From: Chloroflexota bacterium
Lineage (GTDB): Bacteria; Chloroflexota; Limnocylindria; Limnocylindrales; CSP1-4
Direction of reading: 5' to 3'
Assembly: GCA_016191395.1 (NCBI GenBank)
Contig: JACPOS010000009.1
Location: 102,642 to 166,641 of the forward strand
Length of the DNA: 64,000 nt
Part shown: piece after piece, positions 28,356 through 40,709 of the stretch
How the letters are laid out: every line of letters starts with the position of its first letter
Position numbering within the stretch: the first letter of the stretch is position 1
Notes under the pieces: generated by a model
What the model was told of the DNA's origin: nothing
What the model saw: only the letters and a program-made list of their open reading frames with translations
Database searches by the model: none
Translations under genes and position numbers: made by a program

Positions 28356-29093
28356 CTACGGTCGCGCGACGAGCCTGTAGGGAGCTTCGCTGGATCCTCC
28401 TCCGGCCGCCCACAAGATCGCGCGCCCTGGCCAGGGATCGGATCCGCGAAGGGCATCCAGCGCGTCCCGCGGATCAGCCGGGTACGCCGTTCGGAGAAGG
28501 CGGCGATGCTCATCGGCGACGCCACGGGTCGTCCGCGTTTCTCGCACGACCACCAGCTGCGAGATCGCTGGCTCAGGTTCGAGACGAGCCCAGCCCTCCC
28601 ACGATGGCAAGGCCGCCGCCTTGGCCTCCGCCCAGCGGATCTGCTGCTCCAGGCGCCGAAGCCCGGATTCGATCTCGATGGCCAAGAACACCGCGGCCTT
28701 CGCGTCATGGAATCCGAGGTCGATCCAGCCGCGCGACGGCCGCGTGACCGCGATCTCGGTGAACCGTGCCCATCGCGGATGCACGATGCCCAGGAGTGCT
28801 TCGGCGATGGCGGACTGATGGCGATCTCGAATCGTTGCCCCGGTAGTCGGGTACAACCGCAGGCTCATATCGGCACCCAGCACCATCGCGAGCCTGGCGT
28901 ACGTATCGAGAGAGGCACTCTGCGCGCCCGCCTCGATGCGCCTGATGAAGCTCGCATCGACGCCGGACGCGCGCGCCAGCTCGGCCACAGTCAGCCCAGC
29001 GTCCTCACGCTGCCGGAGGACGTCCGCGCCGGCGCTCGCGCGGGCATGGCCTGCCGCCCGCCTCGCCGCACGCTCCCGTGCAAGGTTCGTCAT
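28356..29093 (-). CDS. XRE-HTH protein fused to a restriction-endonuclease-like (PD-(D/E)XK/DUF559-like) domain
   Basis: [31 protein letters not shown]; C-terminal E...GWIDL...LAIEIES; start 29093 or 29102. Confidence 0.75.
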
Positions 29094-29213
29094 CGTTCCC
29101 ATTGAACCCGAACGCGCTTATCTGTCGGTCAACCGTGTCGGGCCGTGGATCTGCGGCCGCTCGCCGCCCTGCGGCCGGTGGCGGCTGCCGAGCGACTCGC
29201 ACAGCGGACTGCC

Positions 29214-29370
29214 GCACGCAGCGTCCGGAATGTTGGGCCGGCGTGTCGCCAGCCGGACCTGCAATCCGGTCTGACGCGGTTCCCGGGTCATTCGCGCGCG
29301 AAAGACGGCGATCTTTGGACAACGCGTCCGATTCGCTGCACGGGACGCCCGGATCTCGGACTGGGAGTCC
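29214..29370. repeat. Array of four GGAC-N5-GTCC palindromes (spacing 41/62/41 bp) upstream of the HTH-nuclease gene
   Basis: GCACGCAGCGTCC 29214, GGACCTGCAATCC 29255, GGACAACGCGTCC 29317, GGACTGGGAGTCC 29358. Confidence 0.8.
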
Positions 29371-29433
29371 TGAGCTTGCCCACCCGGCGGCGAACCGGGG
29401 GCCGTGAACCCGGCCCTGGTCGCTGGCGCCGAC

Positions 29434-37654: not shown

Positions 37655-38821
37655 GTGACGACGTATCGACTCGCGTCCATCGGGGGCGATGGGGTTGGCC
37701 CCGAGGTCACCGCGGCCGCGCGCACCGTGCTCGACGCGGTCGCGCGGCGTGACGGCTTCGGGGTCGAGTGGCTGGACGTCGTCGCCGGCGGCGCGGCGAT
37801 CGACGCGTATGGCACGGCGTTCCGGCCGGAGGACCTCGACGCGGTCGCCGCGTGCGACGCGATCCTGCTCGGCGCCGTCGGCGGCCCGCGCTGGGACGAT
37901 CCCGCCGCGCGCGTCCGGCCGGAGCAGGCACTGTTCGCGCTTCGCGGCGGCCTTGAGCTATTCGCCAACCTCCGCCCCGTCACGATTCTGCCCGCGCTCG
38001 TGCCGTCGTCGCCGGTCCGGCCGGAGGTCCTCGAGGGCGTGGACCTCCTCATCGTTCGCGAGCTCACGTCCGGGCTGTACTTCGGGCGGCCATCCGAGCA
38101 GCGCGAGACGCCGGAGGGTCGCGTCGGCATCGACACGCTCTGGTACACGGAGGGCGAGATCCGCCGGGTCGTCCGGCTCGCCTTCGAGCTGGCGCGGGGC
38201 CGGCGGCGCCGCCTGACGAGCGTGGACAAGGCCAACGTCCTTGCCACATCACGCCTGTGGCGCACGGTCGTCGACGAGCTTCGCGGCGAGTACGCGGATG
38301 TGGAGGTCAATCACCAGCTCGTCGATTCGTGCGCGATGCTGCTCGTCCGCCGTCCCGCGTCCTTCGACGTCCTCGTGACCGAGAACCTGTTCGGCGACAT
38401 CCTCTCGGACGAGGCCGCGGTCCTTGCCGGCAGCCTGGGCATGCTGCCCTCGGCCTCGCTCGGGGAGCGGCGAACCGCGCACGGCCGCTTCGGCCTGTAC
38501 GAGCCCATCCACGGCTCCGCCCCGGACATCGCCGGTCATGACCTGGCGAATCCCGCCGGCACCATCCTGTCCGCGGCCATGCTCCTCCGCTGGTCGCTCG
38601 GGCTCGAGGCGGCCGCAGCCGGCGTCGAGGCGGCCGTCGGCGCCGCGATCGCGGATGGCTATCGGACCGCAGACCTCGTTCCACCCGATGGCGACCGCGC
38701 TGGCCTCCACGTGGTCGGGACGCGCGAGATGACCGCGGCGATCGTGGAGCGGCTCGACGCGCACCGGGACGCGCGCCTCGACGCGCGTCCCGGCCCGCGC
38801 GTAGGTTCGGGAGCCGCCTGA
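37655..38821 (+). CDS. leuB: 3-isopropylmalate dehydrogenase
   Basis: GDGVGPEV, FANLRP, DKANVL, NLFGDILSD, EPIHGSAPDIAG. Confidence 0.97.
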   Translation: MTTYRLASIGGDGVGPEVTAAARTVLDAVARRDGFGVEWLDVVAGGAAIDAYGTAFRPEDLDAVAACDAILLGAVGGPRWDDPAARVRPEQALFALRGGLELFANLRPVTILPALVPSSPVRPEVLEGVDLLIVRELTSGLYFGRPSEQRETPEGRVGIDTLWYTEGEIRRVVRLAFELARGRRRRLTSVDKANVLATSRLWRTVVDELRGEYADVEVNHQLVDSCAMLLVRRPASFDVLVTENLFGDILSDEAAVLAGSLGMLPSASLGERRTAHGRFGLYEPIHGSAPDIAGHDLANPAGTILSAAMLLRWSLGLEAAAAGVEAAVGAAIADGYRTADLVPPDGDRAGLHVVGTREMTAAIVERLDAHRDARLDARPGPRVGSGAA

Positions 38822-38859
38822 TGGTCGTGGGTCCGTTCGGGCATTCCGCCACCGTGGAA

Positions 38860-39017
38860 GGACCACCAGTCCGCGATTCGGTGCGCGCCTGCTTGAACAT
38901 GGACTCGTGGTCCCGTTTCCGACGCGAAACCGAGGGTCATGACCCCGGATCGAGTCGCGAACAGGCTCGGCAGTCCATTTCGGGACATGTCGACGCGAAT
39001 TCGAGGACTCGCAGTCC
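38860..39017. repeat. Gene-less array of four GGAC-N5-GTCC palindromes (spacing 41/63/41 bp) between leuB and cimA
   Basis: GGACCACCAGTCC 38860, GGACTCGTGGTCC 38901, GGCTCGGCAGTCC 38964, GGACTCGCAGTCC 39005. Confidence 0.82.
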
Positions 39018-39056
39018 ACTCGCGCGGCCGGCCCGCCCATCCCAGGGAGCGGCATC

Positions 39057-40709
39057 GTGAGCGAGACGCCGGTCGTGCTCTACGACACGACGCTCCGCGA
39101 TGGCACCCAGGGCGAGAACATCACCCTGTCGCTCGCCGACAAGCTGCGGATCGCGCGCATCCTTGACGAGTACGGCATGCCCTACGTGGAGGGTGGGTGG
39201 CCGGGCTCCAACCCCAAGGACGTGGAGTTCTTTCGCGCCGCGAAGGACCTCACCTGGGGGTCGGCGAAGCTGGCCGCATTCGGGTCGACCCGGCACCGGT
39301 CGAACAGCGCGAAGGACGATCCGAACCTGACCGAGCTCCTCCGAGCCGAGACGCCGGTCGTCACCATCTTCGGGAAGAGCTGGGAGCTGCACGTCACCGA
39401 GGTCCTCGGCGCGACCCTCGCGCAGAACCTGGAGATGATCGCCGACAGCGTCCGGCTCATCGTGGACGAGGGCCGCGAGCTGGTCTACGACGCGGAGCAC
39501 TTCTTCGACGGCTACAAGGCGAACGCCGCCTACGCGATCTCCACGCTGCGCGCCGCCCTGGACGGCGGCGCCCGCACCCTCGTCCTGTGCGATACGAACG
39601 GCGGCACGCTCACGGGTGAGCTGCTGGACATCCTGGGCGCCACGCGCGCTGCGCTCACTGCCGCGGACGGGACGGCACCGACCTTCGGCATCCACACCCA
39701 CAACGACGCAGAGCTCGCGGTCGCGAACTCGCTGGCCGCCGTGGGCGCAGGCGTCCGCCATGTCCAGGCCACGATCAACGGCTACGGCGAGCGGACGGGC
39801 AACGCGAACATGGTCAGCGTCCTCGCCGGCCTCGCGCTCAAGACGTCGTACCCGCTCCTCCCGCCGGGCGGCGGCGACCTCACCGGGCTGACGGAGCTCT
39901 CGCGGTCGGTCGCGGAGATCGCGAACCAGGCGCCCAACGACTACCAGCCGTACGTCGGGCGATCGGCGTTCGCGCACAAGGGCGGCGTGCACGGCGCGGC
40001 GGTGGCGAAAGTGGAGCGGAGCTACCAGCACATCGACCCGACCGCGGTCGGTAACGAGGGCCGGCTCGTCGTCTCCGAGCTCGGCGGCAAGGCGAACACG
40101 GAGATCCGCGCGCGCCAGCTCGGCCACCAGCTGGACGGCGTGGTGGAGCCGGCAGTCCTCTCCACGCTGATCAAGAAGCTCGAGAGCGAGGGCCTCTCGT
40201 TCGAGGGCGCCGAGGCGTCGTTCGAGCTCCTGATCCGGCGTCACCAGGCGGGCTACGCACCGCCCTTCCGCGTCATCGACTACACGTGCCTGGTGGAGCA
40301 GCGAGCCGACGCCGCCCTCCGCGCCGAGGCGACGGTCAAGGTGGAGGTCGATGGGGAGCTGCTGCACACGGCCGCCGAGGGCAACGGTCCGGTGAACGCA
40401 CTCGACGCCGCGCTCCGCAAGGCGCTCCGTGCCTTCTACCCGGTGCTCGACACCGTCCACCTGTACGACTACAAGGTGCGCATCATCGATTCCGGCTCCG
40501 CGACCGGGGCGCGCACCCGCGTGACCATCGAATCGACCGACGGCGCGCTGGAATGGTCGACCATGGGCTCCGACACGAACATCATCGCGGCCTCCGCGAC
40601 CGCCCTCGGCGACTCGCTGGAGTACGCGATCTGGAAGCGGGGCGCCGAGCTTCGGCGCCGCGATGAGCGACACTTCACGACCGTGATCGCAGGAGATGCA
40701 GCGAGATGA
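39057..40709 (+). CDS. cimA: Citramalate synthase
   Basis: YDTTLRDGTQGE, EGGWPGSNPKD, YDAEHFFDGY, AFAHKGGVH, DYKVRI typical of the CimA clade. Confidence 0.92.
   Translation: MSETPVVLYDTTLRDGTQGENITLSLADKLRIARILDEYGMPYVEGGWPGSNPKDVEFFRAAKDLTWGSAKLAAFGSTRHRSNSAKDDPNLTELLRAETPVVTIFGKSWELHVTEVLGATLAQNLEMIADSVRLIVDEGRELVYDAEHFFDGYKANAAYAISTLRAALDGGARTLVLCDTNGGTLTGELLDILGATRAALTAADGTAPTFGIHTHNDAELAVANSLAAVGAGVRHVQATINGYGERTGNANMVSVLAGLALKTSYPLLPPGGGDLTGLTELSRSVAEIANQAPNDYQPYVGRSAFAHKGGVHGAAVAKVERSYQHIDPTAVGNEGRLVVSELGGKANTEIRARQLGHQLDGVVEPAVLSTLIKKLESEGLSFEGAEASFELLIRRHQAGYAPPFRVIDYTCLVEQRADAALRAEATVKVEVDGELLHTAAEGNGPVNALDAALRKALRAFYPVLDTVHLYDYKVRIIDSGSATGARTRVTIESTDGALEWSTMGSDTNIIAASATALGDSLEYAIWKRGAELRRRDERHFTTVIAGDAAR

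Follow-up and report, generated by a model that had tools for sequence, protein, structure and literature searches.

A gene-less four-operator repeat between leuB and cimA in a Limnocylindria genome and its candidate nuclease partner

The leu operon studied here is tightly packed. From ilvN through the gene after cimA, the junctions measure −4, −1, +4 and −4 nt, with a single exception: 235 nt separate the leuB stop codon from the cimA start codon. What fills this gap, how did it arrive, and how is it kept inside an operon? We addressed these questions in a 64,000-nt stretch of DNA (the window) from one genome of the class Limnocylindria, here called G000, and in its relatives. A sequence-only reading of the window had singled out the gap amid tight junctions, correctly as it proved, and had taken it for a gene-less, putatively non-autonomous copy of an array of GGAC-N5-GTCC boxes.

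The leuB-cimA gap and its four boxes

The locus contains the following features, given in window positions.

37655..38821, plus strand: leuB, the upstream gene (TIGR00169 above the NCBIfam cut-off)
38809..38817, plus strand: left GGGAGCCGC, likely a duplicated leuB end and a possible target duplication
38821..39060, plus strand: bridging ORF of 79 codons, from the leuB stop to the cimA start
38859..39018, no strand: four-box array (consensus and A/T profile over 54 arrays)
38934..38945, no strand: central palindrome GGGTCATGACCC on the dyad of the array, not conserved in the family
39045..39060, plus strand: right GGGAGCGGCATCGTGA, ancestral leuB 3' end with the stop overlapping the cimA start (empty alleles G220, G208, G195 and G018)
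39057..40709, plus strand: cimA, citramalate synthase, the downstream gene (TIGR00977 above the NCBIfam cut-off)

The array consists of 15-bp palindromic boxes, each with 6-bp arms and a 3-bp centre, that start at 38859, 38900, 38963 and 39004. The box letters are GGACCACCAGTCC at 38860, GGACTCGTGGTCC at 38901, GGCTCGGCAGTCC at 38964 and GGACTCGCAGTCC at 39005, spaced by 41/63/41 bp. This spacing had been matched from sequence alone to a 41/62/41 array elsewhere in the window, and the match holds; box 3 (GGCTCGGCAGTCC, 38964) carries two mismatches that had gone unflagged. Each box is edged by short A/T-rich stretches, as in the family consensus. The spacings correspond arithmetically to about 4, 6 and 4 helical turns, and the four boxes would face one side of the DNA helix.

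The single GGAC-N5-GTCC box is not enriched in the window (60 one-mismatch matches against 66.8 expected). The geometry is above chance: five arrays with at most three mismatches occur at 41/61–64/41 in the 2.4-Mb genome and none at nine other outer spacings, and the four-box score of the gap was reached by none of 300 shuffles of the gap. The central perfect palindrome reported earlier is indeed present at 38934–38945. It was rejected as a defining part of the element, since a central palindrome of at least 10 bp occurs in only 6 of 56 arrays and some perfect 12-bp palindrome in 40 of 300 gap shuffles.

A structured RNA or single-stranded DNA hairpin in the gap was ruled out (fold z −0.38, no Rfam match over the gap). 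A scan for internal sigma-70 promoters and terminators, of a kind that would miss leaderless promoters with a −10 element only, found none. The leuB tail contains a perfect 10-bp inverted repeat at 38767–38792.

Array copies, junction alleles and the bridging frame

Eight four-box arrays were found in G000, five with the box pattern and three more with a box-agnostic scan. Two lie upstream of XRE-family genes (window position 29214 and C19:263901). The other six are gene-less and occupy the leuB-cimA, fabZ-phosphoesterase, mttB-MTHFR, gnd-zwf and uvrC-secD junctions and a junction of two aldehyde dehydrogenase genes; the gnd-zwf array has a different box, GTCGCT. A match at C31:58659 (score 56.9) was taken as codon periodicity and a match inside a gene (L154) was left out, so that neither enters the array counts. 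The strict GGAC pattern was found in none of 150 family genomes apart from G000. The relaxed four-box pattern matched 17 of 66 genus genomes, with up to 11 copies per genome and no match in the reversed control, and 8 of 251 genomes at the family level. A GGCY-type pattern matched 5 of 66 genomes with two control matches and was therefore used as a lead only. The other genomic copies anticipated from the sequence alone thus exist, both within G000 and among its relatives.

In total 57 arrays were collected, of which four adjoin a family gene. Tandem genes flank 26 of the others, convergent genes 11 and divergent genes 8, and 7 are close to the edge of a contig; the median distance is 86 nt to a flanking stop and 152 nt to a flanking start. 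The geometry of 15-bp palindromes at 41–42/62–63/41–42 bp is common to the family. Boxes and spacing had been read earlier as retained under a constraint on geometry; in the collected loci the geometry alone is shared throughout the family, and the box letters are specific to lineage and protein. Spacer identity is 0.45 among the G000 copies (0.37–0.53 within single genomes), compared to 0.41 between genomes and 0.26 for shuffled spacers. The spacers give no sign of recent copying or of a near-identical donor, and the copies are either old or fast-diverging. Orthologous copies differ at 4 of 128 box-core positions and 51 of 416 spacer positions, a comparison biased by the choice of both members by box pattern. 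Element ends are not conserved between copies, and no fixed-length target duplication was found.

One array has expanded in tandem with a 103-bp period (41+62), similar to MIRU-VNTR loci (L147, G197:C38:3201-3460). Several arrays in long gaps (L149, L161, L185, L187, L193 and the one on contig C29 of G000) are followed by a gene with a TANNNT hexamer 6–7 nt before its start, as judged by eye; these hexamers suggest that leaderless transcripts are frequent in the genus.

The comparison of the leuB-cimA junction covered 36 genus genomes in which one contig carries both genes; incomplete loci were left out of the junction counts. Script calls were wrong for two loci (L013 and L030), of which L013 is an overlap by eye. 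As predicted for an empty site, the genes overlap or lie less than 50 nt apart in 32 genomes (24 overlaps and eight gaps of 33–49 nt). One genome has a 111-nt insert, and three carry a four-box array: G000, and G005 and G210 with GGGCT-type boxes. A contig from a sequencing run of another study has the leuB-cimA array with one difference. The gap is therefore an inserted array copy, for which empty and filled alleles exist. With 32 of 36 junctions empty and copies located elsewhere, the array does not behave as a universal promoter or operator of cimA, the explanation that had been set against a mobile copy.

The empty alleles also point to the ends of the insert. In G220, G208 and G195, leuB ends in Gly-Ala-Ala-Ser-stop overlapping the cimA start, and this end equals the sequence at 39045–39060 of the window; on the best reading, the right GGGAGCGGC is thus ancestral and the left copy is a duplicate. 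The motif GGGAGC(C/G)GC had been noted at both edges of the gap (38809 and 39045). Both copies are present, and their roles are now distinguished, the right one being the ancestral leuB end and the left one likely its duplicate. A contig joint from 38756 to 39046 in an unrelated run, X3, agrees with a duplicated leuB end. Compared to the closest empty alleles, leuB has about 10 extra residues at its tail, and the left edge of the insert may therefore fall inside the present end of leuB.

Inserts of at least 100 nt were found at three other junctions in 11/28, 8/28 and 6/29 other genomes; these junctions were chosen because they are filled in G000. The corresponding numbers for five neighbouring junctions are 0/21, 0/28, 3/27, 1/9 and 0/17. 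Four-box alleles require 2/2, 2/2, 7/7 and 4/4 changes on the four junction trees and are thus scattered; the well-supported branches force 1–3 origins only. Empty alleles retain exact −4/−1 overlaps, and unrelated inserts occupy the same junctions as four-box arrays. Many inserts have NTGA or CTGATG at both ends, as seen by eye; the length of these repeats varies, and their presence is inseparable from selection for coupling. A half-box near the target stop was considered as a targeting signal and found unconvincing (GGAC/GTCC in 6 of 31 gene ends compared to 11.6% genome-wide).

Gene-less arrays could instead be remnants of gene-plus-array insertions after loss of the gene, or old ancestral inserts lost many times, and not self-moving copies. 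Highly diverged spacers, arrays at some loci of distant genomes and trees that force no more than 1–3 origins on well-supported branches agree with this explanation. It is difficult to reconcile with the lack of gene fragments beside 53 of the 57 arrays, with the exact overlaps of the empty alleles, with a single junction filled by different box types and unrelated repeats, and with the G005 inserts, which at three junctions match each other and the array of the G005 gene. We consider it highly improbable.

The gap has an open frame that spans it. This bridging ORF of 79 codons begins with an ATG that lies within TGATG at the leuB stop (−1) and ends with a TGA within GTGA at the cimA start (−4). 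The left GGGAGCCGC (38809..38817) is placed as a predicted ribosome-binding site for this ORF. The right GGGAGCGGCATCGTGA (39045..39060) forms its present end and is likely the ribosome-binding site of cimA. The description of the gap as a gene-less, non-autonomous copy is supported, except that it is not strictly gene-less, being spanned by a doubly coupled frame, and its mobilisation by a partner would be an additional step. A conserved peptide as the product of the ORF was ruled out: the peptide has no Pfam match, and the frame takes three different positions relative to the boxes among the G000 copies. The ORF probably hands ribosomes on to cimA.

Five of the six gene-less copies in G000 are bridged by one ORF, compared to 15 of 167 other co-oriented gaps of 150–400 nt, several of which resemble small real genes or other repeats. 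At uvrC-secD, the one unbridged copy, a TATCAT hexamer precedes the start of the downstream gene by 7 nt, by eye a leaderless promoter. Among inserts of 50–400 nt at the four junctions, 26 of 32 are bridged; the expectation is 14.3 when ends and length are fixed (p 2e-7) and 5.8 when the phase is free. For four-box inserts the count is 12 of 15, against 5.8 (fixed) and 2.7 (phase free). Without the four inserts of G000 by which the junctions were chosen, 22 of 28 inserts and 8 of 11 four-box inserts are bridged. Kin are not independent in these counts, and a 1287-nt gene insertion (L276) was left out. Two unbridged inserts, one of them four-box, are crossed by two chained ORFs. Among the pattern-found arrays between co-oriented genes of other genomes, most of which lie in long gaps, only 4 of 20 are bridged; the frame would therefore be a condition of survival at tight junctions and not a built-in part of the element.

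Other sequences at these junctions are worth recording. Chained ORF pairs with −1/−4 overlaps cross the mttB-MTHFR inserts of L236 (G018) and L247 (G220). A second, unrelated repeat family of 70–90 nt has at least 15 copies in G000 that are 80–93% alike (C13:18992-19060, C30:43678-43763, C26:11318-11387, C21:99516-99602, C19:255693-255764 and others). In four other genomes this second family occupies the fabZ-phosphoesterase junction, in one orientation or the other and with an ORF that bridges it. Further insert types of 160–290 nt, all bridged by coupled ORFs, were found at the fabZ junction (L207, L208, L217, L218 and L219) and the aldehyde dehydrogenase junction (L268 and L273), some of them with long terminal inverted repeats. 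They may be repeats of more distant XRE-nuclease subfamilies, as suggested by a blastn match of L207 near one of these (L306). A 298-nt gap of G000 (C26:47760-48062) has inverted-repeat-like ends and a bridging ORF (−1/−4) and is not of the four-box type.

The linked XRE-nuclease gene and box recognition

One of the two gene-linked arrays lies in the window, together with its gene, about 10 kb from the leuB-cimA gap.

28356..29102, minus strand: P0001, a protein with an XRE helix-turn-helix and a PD-(D/E)XK fold, candidate binder and mobiliser (sequence and predicted structure)
29213..29371, no strand: four-box array upstream of P0001, CGGACT type, spacing 41/62/41

The boxes of this array are at 29214, 29255, 29317 and 29358. 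The gene and its array begin right after the stop codon of a DUF1028 gene; the DUF1028-leuC junction of G013 lacks both. Genes of the family are found repeatedly at a small number of loci, most commonly at leuC and ilvB, and their neighbours include leuC, ilvB and DUF1028. Searches with the single protein returned two loci (one weak) or none, whereas an alignment returned 80. A box-agnostic four-palindrome score of at least 42 was found upstream of 48 of 80 homologues, in a set of loci that was not de-duplicated and includes the P0001 locus itself, and just downstream of 8 of 83. The controls gave 0/111 inside the gene and 1/48 and 1/52 in the far flanks. Among more distant homologues, seven from a second family (f3) and two from f1 lack a four-box array at the same geometry (scores at most 44) and one from f1 has it.

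At E 1e-20, 16 of 251 genomes of the phylum have close homologues of P0001, all of them from two families within its class. The family is annotated only as ‘XRE transcriptional regulator’, and an Atlas look-up with a homologue returned only Chloroflexota HTH clusters. Seven further paralogues in G000 lack a four-box array at the same geometry (C29:86267, C9:100440, C20:72434, C16:40077, C21:61379, C21:6917 and C3:82170). Most of these have a GATAAG-like motif, often doubled, 15–40 nt before the start, possibly a promoter or an element end. In G213, the P0001 orthologue is in two pieces (C2:3042-3700) and the genome still has five gene-less arrays.

P0001 has 248 residues, with the XRE helix-turn-helix at approximately residues 30–80. 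Its C-terminal domain, modelled with a pLDDT of 95, is predicted to have a PD-(D/E)XK restriction-endonuclease-like fold. The best structure matches are XisH (Z 9.2, rmsd 3.4, 118 aligned residues, 11% identity), NucS (Z 8.8) and SfsA (Z 8.2); the match list contains mostly enzymes of this fold, and a Z near 9 is modest. Foldseek returned no match for the domain at E 0.001 or better, the XisH Pfam match is absent from P0001, and PADLOC gave HTH-type matches and none for the C-terminal domain alone. Residues E116, D128 and E143 are invariant in all 72 aligned sequences. Residue 145 is Q in 38, H in 18, E in 14, N in one and M in one of these sequences and never the canonical lysine, so that the predicted site may be atypical or dead. 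BamHI and BglII are active enzymes with E or Q at the lysine position.

These features of the domain bear on a further alternative, in which the arrays are true sites of the XRE protein and have been spread by something else, be it recombination or repair in the host or a transposase that the assembly lacks. In that case the PD-(D/E)XK domain would serve to bind DNA or to oligomerise and would be inactive, which may also be true of XisH. The missing lysine at residue 145 agrees with such a role, as does the best fold match itself, XisH being an excision-controlling factor and not a recombinase in the passages cited (PMC3424549); conserved termini were not found, and the same junctions also take up, in both orientations, repeats of an unrelated family. 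Against it stand the three acidic residues, invariant in 72/72 sequences, and the gene with its array, which itself occupies a junction directly behind a stop codon in some genomes and not in others. A Y1 transposase is not at hand as another agent either, as Y1/RAYT proteins (PF01797) have no match in G000, whose assembly is 89.9% complete. We regard the spread by another agent as unlikely.

The box letters vary among loci (TGGAC, TTGAC, ATCCC, GTGCC, TCCCC and others). In 41 distinct gene-array pairs, the top protein columns for box positions 1, 2 and 3 were residues 50, 51 and 49, respectively (column numbers in the covariation alignment are 3 lower than those of P0001). Residues 49–51 are the start of the predicted recognition helix. 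Gly51 is paired with T at box position 2 in 15 of 19 pairs compared to 1 of 22 otherwise, and Gln50 with A at box position 1 in 4 of 4 pairs compared to none of 37. When kinship was controlled, on a tree built without the HTH, the covariation was not significant, with two independent pairs on well-supported branches (seven on all branches; sign test p 0.5); it is thus a strong lead and not a proof.

Cognate pairing was also seen within genomes. All three G005 junction inserts have their best blastn match among family loci in the gene-flanking array of G005 itself. For 7 of 11 inserts, the array of their own genome is among the four best of 53 (third for the leuB-cimA insert); for the remaining four its ranks are 15, 20, 39 and 42. 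In some genomes the pairing breaks down: G205 has 11 and G225 has 5 GGAC-type arrays, which mismatch the TTGAC/GTG-type array next to the one close family gene found in either genome. P0001 likely binds the boxes.

The HTH of P0001 resembles C.AhdI (Z 11.2), a C protein of restriction-modification systems. C proteins share with P0001 an XRE-type HTH, a GACT-N3-AGTC-like box upstream of their own gene and a correlation between helix residues and bases, the C-box being GACT-N3-AGTC in the sections cited (PMC3488213). They differ in being stand-alone proteins, co-transcribed with a restriction-modification system and bound to two adjacent operators, whereas in P0001 the HTH is fused to a nuclease fold and the operators lie 41–63 bp apart. 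A methyltransferase is not among the nameable recurrent neighbours of the P0001 family, and its arrays have dispersed gene-less copies.

In another alternative, the arrays are host-useful operator blocks or chromosome-organising sites. The protein would regulate itself from the array beside its gene and would serve as a roadblock or a looping factor at scattered loci, movement being rare and incidental. The resemblance of the GGAC box to the C-box (PMC3488213, as far as its cited sections go) and of the HTH to C.AhdI fits this explanation, and so do box cores that are better kept than spacers (4/128 against 51/416, under the bias of selection by box pattern). The genes flanking the six gene-less arrays have no common pathway, though; 11 of 45 callable array contexts are convergent genes, presence is patchy among close relatives, and the leuB-cimA gap lacks a promoter-like site. 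This explanation seems quite improbable.

Relation to known systems and a proposed mechanism

Several other known systems resemble the four-box repeat or its candidate partner. In REPIN-RAYT systems, repeats flank a resident enzyme gene and non-autonomous copies are dispersed in extragenic DNA; these systems share with four-box arrays the two-part layout, conserved palindromes, variable spacers and lineage-specific letters, according to the excerpts cited (bioRxiv 10.1101/2021.07.10.451892). Their partner is an HUH (Y1) tyrosine transposase, whereas that of the four-box arrays would be an XRE-HTH/PD-(D/E)XK protein. A REPIN is a pair of inverted REP hairpins; the four-box unit has four phased duplex operators over about 160 bp, and its single-strand fold is not significant (z −0.38).

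MIRUs are units of 40–100 bp with 40–50 similar copies in mycobacteria, as outlined in two articles that summarise Supply et al. 1997 (PMC12548453, PMC3184786). By the same outlines they share with four-box arrays the insertion at stop/start overlaps in operons, a small ORF overlapping both neighbours, short duplications, and empty and filled alleles. One four-box copy, in G197, has also expanded in tandem, as MIRUs do. Four-box elements are longer (170–290 nt with a core of about 160 bp) and have eight diverged copies in a Chloroflexota genome. The frame through a four-box array varies from copy to copy, and most copies outside tight junctions lack one. Filled MIRU sites have a tetranucleotide direct repeat, and the cited passages name no enzyme for them (PMC12548453, PMC3184786), whereas the four-box repeat has a candidate partner. 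MITEs, as sketched in one of these articles (PMC3184786), are likewise short, gene-less and loosely self-symmetric, with an apparent gene-carrying full form and empty and filled alleles; the four-box repeat lacks their conserved terminal inverted repeats, fixed target duplication, near-identical copies and known transposase family. XisH, the excision factor of the fdxN element (PDB 2okf), shares with P0001 the PD-(D/E)XK fold (Z 9.2) and a link to a mobile element, and is separated from it by 11% identity, the HTH fusion of P0001, the absent XisH Pfam match and the lack of any recombinase partner seen for P0001. On these features the four-box repeat falls outside the REPIN-RAYT, MIRU and MITE classes; it appears to work like REPIN-RAYT and to land like MIRU.

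Taken together, the gap is best explained as an inserted array without a gene, a copy of a four-operator repeat. P0001 would likely bind this repeat and probably mobilise it in trans, and coupling would keep it in place, a reading to which we assign a probability of about 55%. The insertion, the linkage to the gene family and the relay frame are well supported; catalysis and mobilisation by P0001 would be the weak steps. In the proposed mechanism, four protein dimers would read the four boxes through the recognition helix of the HTH and, located on one face of the helix, would form a wrapped or looped complex. The nuclease domains would then nick or cut, and a copy would be inserted at a stop codon or directly behind it. 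A short piece of the stop/start overlap would be duplicated in the process, 4–7 nt by eye at most junctions and perhaps about 15 nt at leuB-cimA. Gene-less arrays would move to gene ends in this way at a low rate. At tight operon junctions only copies with an open in-phase frame would survive, the frame being a filter on survivors and not a coded product. That the array persists in the leu operon is likely due to the open frame across it, by which translation of cimA would stay coupled to that of leuB. Once in place, the boxes would stay under selection while spacers drift, as in REPINs.

On our best reading by analogy, this would be a two-part, REPIN/RAYT-like system of the class Limnocylindria with an operator-binding nuclease instead of an HUH transposase. 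A literature search, with subscription journals mostly out of its reach, found no account of a four-operator, nuclease-paired repeat or of its gene family. We tentatively put forward, as a somewhat doubtful extension, that the system represents an undescribed class of domesticated mobile elements, in which an HTH-addressed PD-(D/E)XK nuclease on four phased operators copies the array to gene ends, a three-residue code gives rise to lineage dialects and coupling filters the insertions.

Small intergenic repeats are common, and their mobilisers are mostly unnamed apart from the RAYT-REPIN and transposase-MITE pairs. Here the repeat comes with a candidate protein, with four sites in a fixed geometry and with dozens of natural variants in box and helix, which make binding, cutting and movement directly testable. 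If the reading is true, MIRU-like junction repeats would have their first candidate enzyme in P0001, which, at 248 residues, would also be a small DNA-insertion enzyme that can be re-addressed. A mobiliser of this type would also give a role to a large family, so far found in one class of Chloroflexota, that is known only as ‘XRE transcriptional regulator’.
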